From IMG/VR virus record IMGVR_UViG_2778261447_000019: DNA of 5,014 bases; one strand, written 5' to 3'. The translations under genes were made by a program, and so were the position numbers. Under the pieces are notes generated by a model that was given only the letters and a program-made list of their open reading frames with translations, was not told the origin of the DNA and searched no databases. Source of the stretch: a virus (lineage: Duplodnaviria; Heunggongvirae; Uroviricota; Caudoviricetes). This document shows, one piece after another, positions 1-5,014 of this stretch (positions within the stretch are counted from its first letter, which is position 1; the number at the start of each line of letters is the position of its first letter).

Positions 1-867
1 CTTGCGCGGGTCTTTTCCGGCTGCGTGCTCAAGCCATTTATGAAAGTTTGGCGCGTTATCGCGGATGTTCTCCCCTGGTACTGGCGGCGTGTACTCAATG
101 CCGTTGTGTGTGGTGATCCAGTTATCAGGCGAGTGCGGGGAAAATTCCCCTGTTTTCAGGTCAAGCACGCCATTAGCGAACGGCAGCAAATCACCGGACG
201 GCTCGCCCATTGGTTCGGCAATAACTTTTAACGCTTCAACGGCGTTACTGATTACGCGCTTGCTGAAAGTGGCCCTGTGCTCTGAATAGATCGCCACCAT
301 TTCGCGGCTCAGTTCCATTGTGCTGACCGGACACCATACCCCGCCGCGCCAGACGTGAACGATTTCACTTTCCGGATGCACACAAACGCCATCAAACCGA
401 CCAGCAAGCATCTGTGCGCGCTCACTGTCTGCCATCTGTGAAAGTTGTGCTTTTTTCTGCTCCGGCATGGTAAGCCCTGCGGCAATATTTTCACGCTCAG
501 CATTCAAATAGCGCCGCCAGTTCTCCACCTTCTGACCGTGCATTCCTTCAGAGTAAAAATTCGCATCCTGAATATCTGCCGCCGCCAGCTTCTGACCAAT
601 CTTTTTGGTCTCCACTAAATCCAGTTCTCCGGCCTGGTACAGCCTTACGCGTTTTTTTCCATCCGGAACAATTTTCAGCGCATCAAGTTCAGCAAGCTGA
701 TTTGGCCCAAGCCACACAGGCGGCACATTATCGCCGGATGCGGGACCGTCCTTCTCCTGCCACTGTTGTGCATGCGACCAGGCATCACTACCCGCGAAAA
801 TAATTACCTCTGTGTCTTTGTGTTTTATTCCGCGTGGCTGTTTTTTTACGTTCGGTGCCAGTTTCAT
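1..867 (-). CDS. Partial CDS (N-terminal 289 codons; C-terminus lies beyond window start): P4-family phage/plasmid primase-helicase-like replication protein
   Basis: The minus-strand frame is open from the ATG at 867-865 to position 1, with no TCA/TTA/CTA triplets in plus frame 1; the six-frame track omits it only because it has no stop inside the window. The ATG overlaps the upstream stop (ATGA at 867-864) and is preceded by a G-rich SD (cAGGGGtaaaa). The translation contains FANGVLDLKTGEFSPHSPDNWITTH...YTP followed by NFHKWLEHAAGKDP, which matches from memory the D5_N / P4-family primase C-terminal signature (NGxLDLxTGxxxxHxPxD...T, then FxxFL....GD). Confidence 0.7.
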   Translation of the reverse strand, partial: MKLAPNVKKQPRGIKHKDTEVIIFAGSDAWSHAQQWQEKDGPASGDNVPPVWLGPNQLAELDALKIVPDGKKRVRLYQAGELDLVETKKIGQKLAAADIQDANFYSEGMHGQKVENWRRYLNAERENIAAGLTMPEQKKAQLSQMADSERAQMLAGRFDGVCVHPESEIVHVWRGGVWCPVSTMELSREMVAIYSEHRATFSKRVISNAVEALKVIAEPMGEPSGDLLPFANGVLDLKTGEFSPHSPDNWITTHNGIEYTPPVPGENIRDNAPNFHKWLEHAAGKDPRK

Positions 868-1163
868 TTTTTACCCCTGAATCCGTTAATCATGGTTTTC
901 AGCTTCTGGATGTTTGCCCGTGCCCTGGCGTTGCTGGTGGGCACGTTATGCGGCGCGGTCTGTACCAGAGAAAAATCACGCCGGAACTGATAAACAGGCA
1001 TCACGCAGTCATATTCGTAGCCATCACGGCGGTAAGTGATGCGCCGTTCCTCCACGCCTTTAATCGTTACCGTGCCGCCGTAGTTATCACGGAAAATATC
1101 GCCTGGACGGATTTCAGGACGAGCGGGGCCGCTGGCATTAACGCCAGTATTTTTCTTTTTCAT
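864..1163 (-). CDS. Hypothetical small basic protein (99 aa); possibly a DUF4222-like phage protein
   Basis: Complete ORF whose stop overlaps the primase start (ATGA). A GGAG lies 10 nt upstream of the ATG. The core GDIFRDNYGGTVTIKGVEERRITYRRDGYEYDCVMPVYQFRRDF resembles the small phage-associated DUF4222 pattern; this is recall, not a search result. Confidence 0.6.
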   Translation of the reverse strand: MKKKNTGVNASGPARPEIRPGDIFRDNYGGTVTIKGVEERRITYRRDGYEYDCVMPVYQFRRDFSLVQTAPHNVPTSNARARANIQKLKTMINGFRGKK

Positions 1164-1168
1164 GTTTT

Positions 1169-1402
1169 TTATTCTCCGGTGTGCTGTTCTTTATATCTGT
1201 CGTGCAATAGGTCTATTTCCTGCAACTCTGTTATTACAGGTTCAAGGAGAGTTATCAGAGATTTAATAATCCGCGCATTCTTTACATCACGCTCATTATC
1301 GCCAAATGTATCCAGATACATTTGCAATATTTCGTACATACCTTCAGCGTAAGCAAGGGCACTAAATGCGCGGTCTATTGTTTCGTGGTAAATATCACGC
1401 AT
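1169..1402 (-). CDS. Hypothetical protein (77 aa, acidic, predicted helical)
   Basis: Complete ORF with ATG at 1402-1400, preceded by GGGGA with a 5-nt spacer. It starts 1 nt after the stop of the upstream gene (TAA-t-ATG) and ends 5 nt before the next ATG, which indicates operon coupling. Confidence 0.6.
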   Translation of the reverse strand: MRDIYHETIDRAFSALAYAEGMYEILQMYLDTFGDNERDVKNARIIKSLITLLEPVITELQEIDLLHDRYKEQHTGE

Positions 1403-1403
1403 A

Positions 1404-1856
1404 TTAATCCCCGTCCGTCGTTTTTCTTAAAACAGTTTCCGTTACGAAATCAGCATAATTAGCGGCGATATCAAGAATATTTAGCCCTGTATCCCTGTGC
1501 TCATCAGTGCAAAGAAAGAAAAAAGCCACCCGCATAATTTCAGATATTGACGAAAGCGCATCAGCCGCATTATCAGGAACGCCGGAAAATTCCTGTTTCA
1601 GGGAATTAAAACGATCATCACGCATAACCCCCCCATTTTCACAATCAGCAATCAGGATGGCTTTAGCCTCATTCAGCGCCATATCAGCGGTTAGCTGTGC
1701 GTAGGCCAGCGAATGCGGGATTATTGCCCCTGTATATTCCGGCTCTCTGGTAATGTGTTTTTCTGCGGTTGCTGCCGTGCATGAAATATCAATCAGCGCG
1801 TGCATTAGCGTTATGATGGCTTCGGCGGCTGCGTCCGGACGGATGTTATTGCACAT
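1404..1856 (-). CDS. Hypothetical protein (150 aa)
   Basis: Complete ORF with ATG at 1856-1854, preceded by GGGGG with a 6-nt spacer. It overlaps the upstream gene by 11 nt. Amino-acid composition is protein-like; no motif recognised. Confidence 0.65.
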   Translation of the reverse strand: MCNNIRPDAAAEAIITLMHALIDISCTAATAEKHITREPEYTGAIIPHSLAYAQLTADMALNEAKAILIADCENGGVMRDDRFNSLKQEFSGVPDNAADALSSISEIMRVAFFFLCTDEHRDTGLNILDIAANYADFVTETVLRKTTDGD

Positions 1857-2214
1857 GGCGCACCCCCTGAATAACCTGATATCCGCAACTGGTCAGCAAT
1901 TCGATAAATTCCGGCAGTGTGCCGAAACAGCAATCATCACGCAGCCGTTCGCAGGATACCTCGACGCCGTTTTCGTAGTGACTCACCATACATCCGGTAA
2001 AATGCAGATCATCATCGTGATGGCTCGTTGACGGCTTAATCAGTCGCGCACGTTCCGCCAGTTCCAGCAATGCTTGAACGCTTCCGGCAATTGCACCATC
2101 CGGCAGGTGATAATTACGCACTATGCGCCCGTTCTCCACATTGACGAGTAGCTGTCCGGTAAATTTCTCACGAAACTGAACGCGGTTAAGATCGGTAAGT
2201 GACAGGTTAATCAT
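1846..2214 (-). CDS. Hypothetical His/Cys-rich protein (122 aa from the ATG at 2214; the track's 161-aa version starts at a GTG at 2331)
   Basis: The ATG at 2214-2212 is preceded by a strong SD (AGGAGG, 6-nt spacer); the longer GTG-initiated form has no SD and would overlap the upstream gene. The C-terminal half has His65, His66, His71, His79 and Cys75, Cys88, Cys95, Cys96, Cys110 (SHHDDDLHFTGCMVSHYENGVEVSCERLRDDCCFG), suggesting a metal-binding site. Confidence 0.6.
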   Translation of the reverse strand: MINLSLTDLNRVQFREKFTGQLLVNVENGRIVRNYHLPDGAIAGSVQALLELAERARLIKPSTSHHDDDLHFTGCMVSHYENGVEVSCERLRDDCCFGTLPEFIELLTSCGYQVIQGVRHVQ

Positions 2215-2404
2215 GGCACACCTCCTGACGAATACGGGCGGCGAATACAGCGACACAACCGGACGGGCAACGGTTACGCGCTTCGCGTTCCGTCCAGGCG
2301 GTGACGTGGATAATTTGAGATTCTCCGGCACTCAGTGCCAGAAAACGCCACATAAAGGCGGTTTGTGTGTGCGCTAGTCGTGGGGTATGCTGTGTTCCAG
2401 CCAT
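2207..2404 (-). CDS. Hypothetical small protein (66 aa), first gene of the operon
   Basis: Internal ATG of the long 2207..3169 ORF at 2404-2402, preceded by AGGAG with an 8-nt spacer (aacAGGAGtaacgattATG). The long upstream extension is serine/cysteine-rich junk antisense to a better gene. The C-terminus contains CPSGC...CH. Confidence 0.5.
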   Translation of the reverse strand: MAGTQHTPRLAHTQTAFMWRFLALSAGESQIIHVTAWTEREARNRCPSGCVAVFAARIRQEVCHD

Positions 2405-2435
2405 AATCGTTACTCCTGTTAACGGTTTGGTTAGA

Positions 2436-2467
2436 CGCCCCGTTACTGCCGCAAACAGTTCGGGGCG
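2436..2467 (-). promoter_or_regulatory. Leader hairpin in the 5' UTR of the minus-strand operon (7-bp GC stem CGCCCCG/CGGGGCG with an 18-nt loop)
   Basis: Perfect inverted repeat CGCCCCG (2436-2442) and CGGGGCG (2461-2467), 32-63 nt upstream of the first ATG of the operon. No U-tract follows on the minus strand, so it is not a classical terminator. Confidence 0.3.
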
Positions 2468-2493
2468 TTGTCGTTTACATCCTCTTACTGAGG

Positions 2494-2569
2494 TGTGATT
2501 TAAATTAAATTCAACTGAATCACAGATCAAGTATTTTTTGTGATTCTTTTTTGTGTATACTGAATCACA
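2494..2569. promoter_or_regulatory. Divergent promoter/operator region with four alternating TGTGATT / AATCACA half-sites
   Basis: TGTGATT at 2494-2500 and 2539-2545; AATCACA at 2518-2524 and 2563-2569. An 11-bp perfect direct repeat ACTGAATCACA occurs at 2514-2524 and 2559-2569, 45 bp apart. The sites form inverted pairs (GAATCACA-N14-TGTGATTC) in an AT-rich stretch between divergent start codons at 2404 (minus) and 2592 (plus). A TATACT -10-like hexamer lies at 2556-2561. Confidence 0.5.
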
Positions 2570-2591
2570 TCTTTTGTTTAGGAGAATGCAC

Positions 2592-2897
2592 ATGGCAAAA
2601 AACACTATCAACGACAAATCAAAACAGATTTCAATTCGTATCCCACATGATGCTTTTGATGGCATGGAATCCGTAAAACTGGACGGCGAAAGCAACGCCG
2701 GATTCATAGTAACCGCCATGCGTGGTGAGATCGCCCGCCGCCAGGCAGAAGGAAGAGGAGAAAATCCCCTGGTTTCTTCGCTCGATGCACTGGCGCAGGT
2801 GGAAAAAATCGGTGTCAAAGCTGCCGAGGAGATCGGGCAACTCGTCGCCGTTGCGCGTGAAGAACTCCAGCGGCGCAAAGCCAAAGAACAGGAATAG
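2592..2897 (+). CDS. Putative ribbon-helix-helix (CopG/Arc-like) DNA-binding regulator, 101 aa
   Basis: The ATG at 2592 is preceded by GGAGA (2581-2585) with a 6-nt spacer; the track's longer ORF from 2553 lacks an SD. The N-terminus KQISIRIPHDAFDGMESVKLD...NAGFIVTAMRGEIARR has a beta-strand/helix/helix pattern typical of RHH repressors, and the C-terminus is a charged helix. An intrinsic terminator follows directly. Confidence 0.65.
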   Translation: MAKNTINDKSKQISIRIPHDAFDGMESVKLDGESNAGFIVTAMRGEIARRQAEGRGENPLVSSLDALAQVEKIGVKAAEEIGQLVAVAREELQRRKAKEQE

Positions 2898-2928
2898 CCC
2901 ACCAGCAAGCCAGCACACTGATCACATT

Positions 2929-2956
2929 GGCCACCGTGACAGGTGGCCTTTTCTTT
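2929..2956 (+). terminator. Rho-independent terminator of the RHH regulator gene
   Basis: GGCCACC (2929-2935), loop gtgaca, GGTGGCC (2942-2948), followed by TTTTCTTT (2949-2956). Confidence 0.6.
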
Positions 2957-2973
2957 GCCCGTTATCCGGCAAT

Positions 2974-3003
2974 TGTGGCGCTTCGCCACACGGTTGATAT
3001 AAT
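2974..3003 (+). promoter_or_regulatory. Candidate sigma70 promoter with an extended -10 (TGaTATAAT), overlapped by a 7-3-7 palindrome
   Basis: TG at 2995-2996 and a consensus TATAAT at 2998-3003. A perfect palindrome TGTGGCG-ctt-CGCCACA at 2974-2990 occupies the -35/spacer position, which is an operator-like arrangement. Confidence 0.4.
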
Positions 3004-3009
3004 TCCCCT

Positions 3010-3080
3010 GCTCAGATTCATTTTTTGCGCAGCAGGTAAATTGTTCAGAAAGGCGGCTCCTTATCGGGGCCGCTTTTTTT
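3010..3080 (+). ncRNA. Candidate small RNA (~70 nt) bounded by the extended -10 promoter and a strong intrinsic terminator
   Basis: No plausible ORF with an RBS. It contains a 6-bp stem CCTGCT/AGCAGG (3007-3012 and 3031-3036), an AU-rich linker, and the terminator hairpin. It lies between the regulator gene and alpA. Confidence 0.3.
3053..3080 (+). terminator. Rho-independent terminator (8-bp stem with one G-U pair, followed by T7)
   Basis: GCGGCTCC (3053-3060), loop ttatc, GGGGCCGC (3066-3073), then TTTTTTT (3074-3080). Confidence 0.65.
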
Positions 3081-3196
3081 ATGTCTGAAAAACCGCGATT
3101 TTGTTGTTTTTCAGTTTCACAAGGCCGAACGAAGCCCCGCCCCTGTTCGGGCGTATATCCAGTCTTCATGGTTAAATCTCTGTATTAGTGGATGGG

Positions 3197-3223
3197 TGGC
3201 GGCTGTGTGCCGCCAGTCTTTTT
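3197..3223 (+). terminator. GC hairpin with T5 tract abutting the alpA stop codon (possible convergent or bidirectional terminator)
   Basis: TGGCGGC (3197-3203), loop tgtgt, GCCGCCA (3209-3215), then gtcTTTTT (3216-3223). On the minus strand the hairpin sits immediately after the alpA stop but is not followed by a U-tract. Confidence 0.35.
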
Positions 3224-3410
3224 AGTGAACTGCCTCGCAGCTTTCCTTCCATGCCAGAACTTCGGATAAAGACCAGCCAACGGAACGACCGCCCAGCTTA
3301 CGCCGTGATGGGAATTGTCCGGCCTTTTCCAGGCGGTAGCGGCATGAGCGGCTAAGGCCTGTTAGCTTTTCGCATTCTTTTTCACGTATAAACCGATCAG
3401 TGCTTAACAC
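3222..3410 (-). CDS. alpA: AlpA-family phage transcriptional regulator / excisionase-like protein (62 aa)
   Basis: GTG start at 3410-3408, preceded by aGGGGG with a 5-nt spacer. The sequence KLTGLSRSCRYRLEKAGQFPSRRKLGGRSVGWSLSEVLAWKE matches the AlpA/Vis-type helix-turn-helix signature (TG.SRS..YR....G.FP...KLG.RSVGW...EV..W). It sits immediately downstream of an integrase, as in CP4-57 and P4-like elements. Confidence 0.85.
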   Translation of the reverse strand: MLSTDRFIREKECEKLTGLSRSCRYRLEKAGQFPSRRKLGGRSVGWSLSEVLAWKESCEAVH

Positions 3411-3784: not shown

Positions 3785-5014
3785 TTATTTTCTTCTGGCT
3801 ACTGGTAGCGTGGTTACGTTTTCATGTGCTCCCGCCAGTATCTCCAACCGCTCCACCCACATATCCAGCGCATTGCGTTTCGCATCCAGATAACGGGAAT
3901 GATTATAAACTCGCTGCATCCCTGGCATCTGGTGGCCTGTAAGCTGCTCCACGACGTGAGGATCCACGCCTAAATCGTTCAGCATGGTTGTAAAGGTGCG
4001 CCGGATGTCATGCAGTGACCAGTGAGGGTGTTTAAGCCTCCTGTGCACTAATCTGCCGTACTGCGACACGCTGGTTTCCTGTTTCACTTCCCCCAGCAAT
4101 AAGCCCGTGTGCCTGTTCTGCTCCACCAGCTGCGTGATGAACGGCAGTATCGCTTCCGGTATGGGCCGGAATATGGCTACCTTCGTTTTGCTGTGCTCCT
4201 TCGGAACGGTCCAGAGCATTTCGGTAAAATCCCACTCGCCGATCTCCGATAACCTCAGTTCTACTGTCCGGCATCCGAAAACAATCAGGAGGCGGATTAG
4301 TGCGACGTAGTAAGGGGAAAATATTTTTTTGTCCAGTGCCTGCAATAATTCGCCCAGTTCTCTGGTGCTTAAGACACGTTCGCCTATATCCGGTTTTTTC
4401 CCAACGTCAGCCACACTCATATCATCAAGAACGTTGCTGATTGCATAGCGCCGCTTCCGGCAGAACTTAAGCGCCTGTTTGCATGTCTGTAGCAGGAACC
4501 CGGCGGAAACAGGGGCTTGCTTTGCCACCCGATCAAAACAGGCCAGCCAGTGCCGTAGCTCGCATTTATCCAGCGGCATAGGGCCAATGTGCTGTATTAC
4601 GTGATTATTTAGCCGCTTTTTCAGTGGGTCATAATCCACACGGTTTTCCTTTGCGTACGACTCAAGCCAGTAGGTGAGCGCATCGCCAACCGTTACAGGC
4701 TTTAACGCTTCCTGTACGGTGTAATTCATCTCATGACGTGGATTTTTCCCCTCAGCCAGCCATGCGCGACACTGGGCGGCTTTTTCCCTGGCTGATTTCA
4801 GGCTCAGATCAGGATAATTTCCCAGCTTAATGCGTTCCGGTGATGCCCCCCTTCCCGTTCCGGCCCTGTAAGTGAAATACCAGGTTAAAAGGCCGCTGGT
4901 TGAATGCCTGACGGTCAGGTTTCCACCGTCATTAAGAAAGACTGTTTTTTGGGCGGGTGTGCCGTTGATTTTCCTTAGCTGTGTATCACTCAGTTTGTTA
5001 AGTGCTCTGCGCAT
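3785..5014 (-). CDS. int: Tyrosine recombinase, P4-type phage integrase (409 aa)
   Basis: The N-terminus LSDTQLRK...DGGNLTVRHSTSG...WYFTYR is an arm-binding-like domain typical of P4-family integrases. The C-terminal catalytic box has HDIRRTF (H-x-x-R) and RVYNHSRY (catalytic Tyr). The start codon occupies the last three bases of the window, so the true 5' end and the adjacent att site or tRNA cannot be verified. Confidence 0.9.
   Translation of the reverse strand: MRRALNKLSDTQLRKINGTPAQKTVFLNDGGNLTVRHSTSGLLTWYFTYRAGTGRGASPERIKLGNYPDLSLKSAREKAAQCRAWLAEGKNPRHEMNYTVQEALKPVTVGDALTYWLESYAKENRVDYDPLKKRLNNHVIQHIGPMPLDKCELRHWLACFDRVAKQAPVSAGFLLQTCKQALKFCRKRRYAISNVLDDMSVADVGKKPDIGERVLSTRELGELLQALDKKIFSPYYVALIRLLIVFGCRTVELRLSEIGEWDFTEMLWTVPKEHSKTKVAIFRPIPEAILPFITQLVEQNRHTGLLLGEVKQETSVSQYGRLVHRRLKHPHWSLHDIRRTFTTMLNDLGVDPHVVEQLTGHQMPGMQRVYNHSRYLDAKRNALDMWVERLEILAGAHENVTTLPVARRK

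Follow-up and report, generated by a model that had tools for sequence, protein, structure and literature searches.

We analysed a stretch of 5,014 nucleotides, deposited as the IMG/VR virus record IMGVR_UViG_2778261447_000019 and called the window here, in which five small genes are packed on the minus strand at positions 864-2404, directly ahead of a replication primase. The genes are assigned below to a phage-inducible chromosomal island (PICI) of Escherichia coli. In the direction of reading we call them g1 (2207..2404, 65 amino acids), g2 (1846..2214, 122 amino acids), g3 (1404..1856, 150 amino acids), g4 (1169..1402, 77 amino acids) and g5 (864..1163, 99 amino acids). All open reading frames (ORFs) proposed in an earlier sequence-only reading of this DNA are present, and the junctions are as that reading described them: g1 and g2 overlap by 8 nucleotides and g2 and g3 by 11, g3 is followed by g4 in the arrangement TAA-t-ATG, a gap of 5 nucleotides separates g4 from g5, and g5 runs into the primase gene with the overlap ATGA. 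Each gene has its own Shine-Dalgarno sequence (SD), since a purine-rich element is found 6-13 nucleotides 5' of every start (AGGAG, AGGAGG, AGGGGG, GGACGGGG, GGAG, AGGGG). The size of g1 had to be corrected; the previously given 66 is the number of codons with the stop included.

Several observations indicate that g1 to g5 are real genes and more than chance ORFs, because all five match PHROG families (E between 1e-28 and 1e-59), the pairwise ratio of nonsynonymous to synonymous substitution rates (dN/dS) across homologues lies at 0.21-0.50 in every family, and the NCBI gene calls for the source contig give the identical five genes. No minus-strand terminator-like sites were found inside 864-2404. 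The earlier statement that none of the proteins is recognisable holds for g2, g3 and g4, which have no match in Pfam, NCBIfam or PADLOC, but not for g1, which is Icd-like/Kil-like, nor for g5, which belongs to the DUF4222 family of the regulator RgdR. Nearly all homologues of g2, g3 and g4 are from E. coli and a few are from Salmonella and Shigella; tblastn searches of 50,697 phage genomes, phage P4 among them, gave no match for these three proteins. Searches of Pfam and NCBIfam revealed no enzymatic domain and no defence domain in the block, and PADLOC-DB 2.0.0 gave no match for the nine window proteins at E <= 0.1. The comparison with solved structures that had been suggested was made by sequence profile and gave no significant relative for any of the five families. 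The proteins g2, g3 and g4 are satellite-only cassettes, and the block is not a new system, because it is the standard early-operon front end of a known PICI family and two of its genes fall in named families.

The conservation of the block was examined in 92 loci selected on DUF4222. An Icd-like gene is present in 85 of these, and in those 85 (80 from IMG/VR, the others from E. coli genomes) the interval from the Icd-like gene to DUF4222 was tiled and the products were clustered into families; a scan of genome contigs with g5 yielded only two loci. The Icd-like gene comes first in 79 of the 85 tiled loci and DUF4222 comes last, directly upstream of the replication gene, in 84. Between them lie one to five genes, which belong mainly to about ten recurrent families of 60-155 amino acids. 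These combine to 33 architectures, the order of which is fixed: for example, family F5 or F6 is third from the end in 62 of 62 loci. The order of the window itself (Icd, F9, F6, F3, DUF4222) occurs in only two of the 85 loci, the window and locus L006. The junctions are uniform as well, with 94% of 335 falling within -14 to +6 nucleotides, and most of them share the motif CAGGrGGTGyrCC-ATG-nnnAATAA, which combines a strong SD, the start codon and the stop codon of the upstream gene in codons 2-4 of the next gene. Since the upstream stop lies inside the following gene, the last few residues of each protein depend on the cassette that comes next. No association was found between the cassette content and the type of replication gene.

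The sequence-only reading had taken the block for a hotspot of accessory cargo and for the best candidate for an undescribed system in the window. The synteny comparison contradicts the first claim, as the genes come from a small satellite-specific pool in fixed order and neither PADLOC nor Pfam shows a defence or enzymatic domain in them; the second fails with it, since the block is the early-operon front of a known PICI family and matches no defence family. An open cargo hotspot with a novel defence or anti-defence system, the explanation then preferred, is in our view very improbable. The zone between AlpA and the replication gene has been called 'dynamic' (PMC10111431), which would suit such a hotspot. 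The variable content seen in the 33 architectures would suit it too, as would the lack of annotation of g2, g3 and g4, but the variation is drawn mainly from about ten satellite-only families with a fixed order and uniform junctions, and the five genes do not travel together as one unit, as shown by the rarity of their exact order. Furthermore, the known defence hotspots of PICIs and P4 are located elsewhere.

The other possibility named at the time, conserved satellite housekeeping genes analogous to those of P4, is much closer to the evidence, and part of it can be retained. A kil counterpart is indeed found in g1, g5 and g4 are widespread, and g3 or its halves occur in most loci. The likeness to eps, orf151 and orf106 of P4 is positional only, and g2 is truly optional (14 of 85 loci). 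Homology of the block to P4 eps, orf151 and orf106 was considered and rejected: the proteins fall in different PHROGs and Pfam families, hhalign gave probabilities of at most 21%, and tblastn was negative.

The first gene of the chain, g1 on the minus strand, matches the NCBIfam model NF033153 (phage_ICD_like) with 64 bits (E 9.3e-18; curated cut-off 25) and phrog_1743 with an E-value of 2.7e-24. The Icd protein of phage P1 itself matches NF033153 at 3.4e-14, and hhalign aligned it to g1 with 96.3% probability (E 1.6e-9, 40% identity across 45 columns); the common motif is FIWRF...TE.EAR...P.G..F.AR. In P4, residues 85-132 of the ORF annotated 'cI/eta' (eta/kil) match NF033153 at 7.8e-21 and residues 73-137 match the PHROG of g1. 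The C-terminal part of 65 residues of this ORF is presumably P4 Kil, as the description in PMC10111431 also has it; the P4 kil/eta logic is described there. The direct hhalign comparison of g1 with P4 is weak (30% probability). Judged by these profile matches, g1 is a true homologue of both P4 Kil and P1 Icd. Like g1, which opens its operon with the 8-nucleotide overlap to g2, P1 icd is coupled to the following gene: icd and ant1 overlap by ATGA, and according to the annotation icd is required for ant expression.

Some annotations around Icd-like proteins deserve comment. A frame of 320 codons (2207-3169, minus strand) is in frame with g1 and spans, in antisense, the whole of the divergent gene ylcI and both intergenic regions. 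This long form of g1 was rejected, as the 255-residue extension has no family match and runs antisense to the well-supported ylcI. Annotation pipelines at times call such long 'Icd-like' forms, for example of 157 amino acids in strain CFT073 and 121 amino acids in ECOR61. The PHROG label 'transcriptional repressor' on families matched by g1 is probably inherited from the old P4 annotation 'cI gene product' (NC_001609, CDS 8168-8584) and therefore gives no reading of the function of Icd-like proteins. Of all records in the phage collection, LR881103.1 ('Escherichia phage vB_KppS-Ant', 16.5 kb) alone gave an Icd-like match to g1; the length of this record, and the fact that it stems from an 'induced prophage', point to a packaged PICI that was deposited as a phage. 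Finally, the 'icd' mentioned in the HE-PICI paper is not an Icd-like gene; the name stands there for isocitrate dehydrogenase.

At the other end of the block, g5 (minus strand) matches the Pfam family DUF4222 (PF13973) with 88.7 bits against a gathering score of 27. The protein is 82% identical over its full 99 amino acids to the protein of the cryptic element CP-933C of E. coli O157:H7, and island position and synteny are equal, by which g5 is identified as an orthologue of the O157:H7 regulator RgdR (ECs1581). RgdR activates LEE1, an operon of the enterocyte effacement locus (LEE), and type III secretion, represses motility and binds DNA non-specifically (PMC3378721); activation of LEE1 and type III secretion and repression of motility were reported for both ECs1581 and C1493 (PMC3378721). 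Residue 20 of RgdR was shown to matter for LEE activation (PMC3378721). Structure prediction models the DUF4222 core as a KOW/Tudor-like barrel, followed by a basic C-terminal helix. The DUF4222 core (PGDIFRD...FRRDFSLV) shows a weak alignment to the N-terminus of ORF151 of P4 (7440-7895 of the P4 locus, L093; PGEIYRS...YRRKFSILV). With an hhalign E-value of 0.002, a probability of 13% and no Pfam match, this ORF151 segment may be a very distant DUF4222 relative.

Of the genes between these two, g4 (minus strand, phrog_2196 at 7.9e-34) keeps a constant position. This small helical protein represents family F3, which is present in 61 of the 85 loci and is penultimate, beside DUF4222, in all 61; family F11 is a distant relative of F3 (hhalign 94%). 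A search for remote homologues of g4 in 1.84 billion representative proteins yielded just nine clusters, and no match was obtained in the PDB.

The optional cassette g2 (minus strand, family F9, phrog_340 at 2.6e-28) has 72 homologues, nearly all from E. coli. By profile comparison and modelling it is a tandem internal duplication of a domain of about 45 amino acids with a strand-strand-helix fold, which we call the FTG domain: hhalign aligned the N-terminal with the C-terminal half at 78% and the single-domain family F7 with the C-terminal half at 95%, F10 and F9 were aligned at 99.8%, and the AlphaFold2 model, which is of low confidence (pLDDT, the predicted local distance difference test, 46), repeats the E-E-H pattern twice. 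Several natural variants of g2 (P0154, P0161, P0168 and others) carry in-frame deletions with ends in the two repeated FTG motifs, which suggests repeat-mediated deletion within the duplicated gene. The sequence-only reading had called g2 His/Cys-rich and suggested a metal-binding component. The composition was correctly described (5 Cys, 6 His), but a conserved set of ligands is lacking. There is no CxxC or HxH pair in g2, and C95, C96 and C110 are conserved among close relatives only. Metal binding is unsupported because 14-15 of 20 full-length homologues have Arg in place of C75 and C88 and because the Cys/His set is missing from the N-terminal repeat and from F10 and F7, the single-domain relatives. 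A common PHROG match had raised the possibility that g2 and g3 are paralogues; this was rejected, BLASTP giving an E-value of 0.18.

The third gene, g3 (minus strand, family F6, phrog_2512 at 3.4e-59), is an in-frame fusion of two cassettes that also exist separately, F4 (residues 1-76) and F5 (residues 78-150). The halves match phrog_5146 (residues 1-73) and phrog_24341 (residues 78-150), and F4 and F5 each align to F6 at an hhalign probability of 100%. The fused form is found in 20 of the 85 loci, a separate F4 gene in 48 and a separate F5 gene in 42. At the junction between the F4 and F5 parts lies a poly-G tract of seven nucleotides (1628..1634, minus strand), flanked as in GAAAAT-Gn-TT-ATGCGTGATGA; no other G7 run occurs in the window. 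The length of the tract sets the frame: with G7 or G10 one ORF of about 150 amino acids results, and with G8, G9 or G11 two ORFs of about 75 amino acids each, the F4 stop then falling just past the F5 ATG. Counts of the exact pattern in IMG/VR gave 0 tracts with G6, 23 with G7, 34 with G8, 18 with G9, 4 with G10 and 2 with G11. The number in frame (27 of 81) is the one-third expected if there is no selection on frame.

The poly-G tract appears to evolve far faster than the surrounding sequence, because its length differs between loci that have identical flanks. Where 250 bp on either side are 100% identical, the length differs in 5 of 20 locus pairs, by up to 3 nucleotides; with flanks that are at least 99% identical it differs in 8 of 9 pairs. 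Errors in sequencing the homopolymer may account for part of this variation, but they are an unlikely cause of differences of 2-3 nucleotides. The locus thus resembles homopolymer contingency loci in having a tract of at least 7 nucleotides that sets the reading frame and that varies in length among otherwise identical sequences, possibly in part by sequencing error. A literature search found no description of this poly-G tract. Should the tract prove real, such a way of generating variation would be uncommon in E. coli.

The genes outside the block identify the element. The window encodes a tyrosine integrase (3785..5014, minus strand; Pfam Arm-DNA-bind_3 and Phage_integrase), the PICI master activator AlpA (3222..3410, minus strand; Pfam Phage_AlpA at 5e-18), a regulatory partner of the YlcI/YnfO family in divergent orientation (2553..2897, plus strand; NCBIfam NF041551 at 6.6e-18, phrog_6522 at 3.2e-57) and the N-terminal 289 amino acids of a D5_N-type replication primase, which leaves the window (1..867, minus strand; Pfam D5_N at 1.5e-16, phrog_864 DNA primase at 6.9e-59). 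The int, alpA and pri/rep genes are co-directional, as in Gram-negative PICIs of the EcCICFT073 type. On the E. coli source contig NOCS01000105.1 the island adjoins roxA, and the attachment site is as in CFT073 and O157:H7. Annotated relatives are found at this site in CFT073, where EcCICFT073 is the prototype Gram-negative PICI, and in O157:H7, where the cryptic element is known as CP-933C or OI-51; the integrase of the window is 94% identical to those of both. This gene content and location make the window an EcCICFT073/CP-933C (OI-51)-type PICI of E. coli at roxA. Window and source contig both stop within the primase gene, so that the late region of this copy lies beyond the window; close relatives of the island have ssb, PerC, a major capsid gene and a decoration gene. 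The same block is also seen in capsid-forming PICIs with HK97 capsid, protease and portal genes, and another copy is in an island embedded in the terminase gene of a prophage. By megablast, 1814 of 5426 complete E. coli genomes match the 5-kb window in part; the 1.5-kb block itself has at least a partial match in 1500 of the 5426 and is covered for at least 80% in 281.

The chain of coupled genes ends with the primase, the ATG of which is at 867 and which in related islands is complete at this position with 582-619 amino acids. The block precedes three kinds of replication gene, encoding a D5_N primase, a RepA-type helicase or a DUF927 protein. Within the primase (window 1-867), residues 1-142 belong to a shared region: an N-terminus of about 125-142 residues is 54-69% identical to that of replication proteins of the RepA-helicase and DUF927 types (L006, L007, L008). 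DUF4222 and this N-terminal domain consequently form a conserved block ahead of swappable catalytic parts.

Such an arrangement brings to mind that the small genes could be accessory replication factors for the coupled initiator, acting in origin recognition, helicase loading or copy control. The translational coupling to the replication gene, the start of which DUF4222 overlaps by ATGA in most loci, would fit this role, as would the joint travel of DUF4222 and the first 140 or so residues of the replication protein across the primase, RepA and DUF927 types and the non-specific DNA binding of RgdR (PMC3378721). We nevertheless regard it as quite improbable, as the choice of cassettes does not depend on which type of replication protein follows and pri and ori of EcCICFT073 alone kept a plasmid (PMC6092414, Fig. 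2 legend). Moreover, RgdR alone alters host transcription, and the homologues of g1 are growth inhibitors and not replication proteins.

Between g1 and ylcI, which diverge, lies the control region (2405..2552), with operator-like TGTGATTC repeats and a structured g1 leader. Four operator-like copies of TGTGATTC/GAATCACA are located at 2489-2569, and a GC-rich hairpin at 2435-2468; the fold of the leader has a z-score of -3.65, which is better than that of shuffled sequence. A direct repeat of 23 nucleotides is also present in 2405-2570, one copy of which covers the SD of g1. A terminator-like hairpin follows ylcI at 2929-2948 (within 2914-2954). This ylcI terminator accounts for the sole match obtained in the Rfam search for an immunity RNA, a sub-threshold one to isrD. 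A second hairpin just past alpA (3195-3218) has a T-run on the plus strand only, because of which transcription of alpA may read through towards g1.

Considering the gene structure, homologies and conservation pattern described above, we think it likely that the five genes form the part nearest the promoter in the early (replication) operon of a PICI of the EcCICFT073/CP-933C type, a translationally coupled chain with the replication initiator as its last member. AlpA is the activator of the downstream (rightward) genes of EcCICFT073 (PMC6092414). In the mechanism that we propose, a helper or other phage would switch on the AlpA-controlled operon, after which ribosomes would pass from g1 across each junction, with its arrangement SD-N6-ATG and the upstream stop a few nucleotides beyond, into the primase gene. 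The uniform re-initiation junctions imply that the genes would come on together. The first product, g1, would be an Icd/Kil-type inhibitor of growth or division that doubles as a translated leader for the genes behind it, by analogy with P1 (icd-ant) and P4 (kil/eta-alpha), where translation of the homologues is needed for downstream expression. The predicted KOW/Tudor-like barrel of g5 would make it a low-specificity regulator binding DNA or the transcription machinery, such as RNA polymerase, and g2, g3 and g4 would most likely be small binding proteins directed against targets of the host or the helper phage. Growth arrest, reprogramming of the host and replication of the island could thus be switched on together.

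A related array may already have been tested experimentally. Silas et al. (bioRxiv 10.1101/2023.04.06.535777) found that the accessory gene orf24 of T7-group phages halts growth of E. coli strain ECOR61 and that suppressor transposon insertions were located in an Icd-like gene and in genes of 186 and 192 nucleotides. Reconstitution needed six linked genes, including the primase gene, removal of the Icd-like gene abolished the effect, and the reconstituted effect was described as muted; P4 behaved likewise, for which the authors proposed up-regulation of kil (bioRxiv 10.1101/2023.04.06.535777). According to the supplementary coordinates, the ECOR61 locus contains genes of 366, 186 and 192 nucleotides with overlaps of 8 and 1 nucleotides, which is the F2-F12-F8 layout of loci L002 and L008. 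Given these gene lengths and overlaps, the ECOR61 'prophage superinfection exclusion system' appears to be a sister of the array described here.

The ECOR61 work raises the question of whether block and primase together are a dedicated phage-triggered system for abortive infection or superinfection exclusion, in which the small proteins sense an early phage protein and release the Icd-like toxin. The location of the suppressors, the need for six genes and the equality of gene sizes and overlaps with the PICI layout are what such a system would give. The same result, however, is predicted by simple induction of the island by orf24, in which the AlpA operon is turned on, a Kil/Icd-like protein is made and replication becomes uncontrolled, which is toxic in the case of EcCICFT073 (PMC6092414). 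The similar behaviour of P4, with the proposed role of kil, and the muted effect upon reconstitution speak against a dedicated system. In addition, nothing in the block matches PADLOC, the array is built into the island backbone and is no exchangeable defence island, and the window lacks the cassettes that were tested in ECOR61 (F12 and F8). A dedicated system of this kind is therefore an unlikely explanation, though compatible with the ECOR61 data. A more elaborate version, in which the array is a phage-sensing toxic module with a specificity tuned by the choice of cassettes and by slipped-strand changes in the poly-G tract of g3, we consider decidedly unlikely. If this is true, an E. coli phage satellite would for the first time be described as carrying a homopolymer contingency locus, and a clonal population could hedge which phages induce the island or are blocked by it.

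Some observations weigh against the interpretation as a coupled early operon with an Icd/Kil-type leader. The role of g1 in leading or gating expression may not carry over from P1 and P4, because the antisense RNA that controls icd or kil translation in those phages is not detectable here: no Rfam match to a C4/IsrK (C4/CI-type antisense) RNA upstream of g1 was obtained in the window at E <= 1. The P1/P4 logic as a whole is not readily transferable either, as the PICI has instead the repeats and the structured leader beside a divergent ylcI. With regard to g5, residues 20-22 are PGD (P20-G21-D22) where RgdR has RGD, so that LEE or motility activity is not to be assumed, and the known RgdR phenotypes, LEE activation and motility, concern the host and not the life cycle of the island (PMC3378721). 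Any activity of g2, g3 and g4, which have neither a solved-structure relative nor a Pfam family, is predicted only, and the match to ECOR61 is one of gene lengths and overlaps, not of aligned sequence.

What was already known of this locus comprises the element type and the families of g1 and g5, together with the experiments on the sister array. New are the colinear cassette array with its uniform junctions, the poly-G switch between fused and split forms of g3, the duplication in g2 and the modelled KOW/Tudor-like fold of DUF4222. The block does not stand up as a candidate for a new defence system. Its interest lies in the fact that the array is carried by about a quarter of complete E. coli genomes, including O157:H7 and CFT073, and that only its last gene has been studied directly. 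As one colinear coupled unit it joins three literatures, on P1 Icd and P4 Kil, on RgdR in the virulence of enterohaemorrhagic E. coli and on phage-triggered death in ECOR61, and it yields concrete hypotheses on how a PICI affects its host during the first minutes of induction.

Comparison with known systems shows likeness at several levels. The nin region and other lambdoid small-gene regions are also runs of small, tightly overlapping genes, mostly of unknown function, with mosaic boundaries at the gene junctions. They have no sequence relationship to the block; g2, g3 and g4 are absent from the phage genomes searched. The NF033153 domain is common to g1, P1 Icd and P4 Kil, which are also similar in size (65 amino acids in g1, 73 in P1 Icd and 65 in P4 Kil) and in being encoded by the first translated gene of an operon, coupled to the gene that follows. 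The downstream genes are different: PICI cassettes and a primase gene here, an antirepressor gene in P1, and eps, orf151 and orf106 in P4.

The ECOR61 locus resembles the array in having the Icd-like gene first, followed by overlapping genes of 61 and 63 codons, with six linked genes up to a DNA primase, and its layout and junctions (-8, -1) are those of the PICI arrays L002 and L008. Its cassettes are F12 and F8 and not g2 and g3, and the authors did not call the locus a PICI. RgdR and g5 are both proteins of 99 amino acids with the same Pfam domain, 82% identical and encoded directly upstream of the replication gene of their island, whereas they differ in the RGD motif of RgdR, which is PGD in g5. 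The closest systems are EcCICFT073 and CP-933C, which have the same gene order (int, alpA, divergent ylcI, Icd-like, small genes, DUF4222, replication gene) and the same insertion next to roxA, with an integrase and AlpA that are 94% and a DUF4222 protein that is 82% identical (Fillol-Salom 2018, PMC6092414; Flockhart 2012, PMC3378721). The difference is in the choice of cassettes: CFT073 carries Icd, F8, F4, F5 and F3, O157:H7 carries Icd, F10, F6 and F3, and the window carries Icd, F9, F6 and F3.

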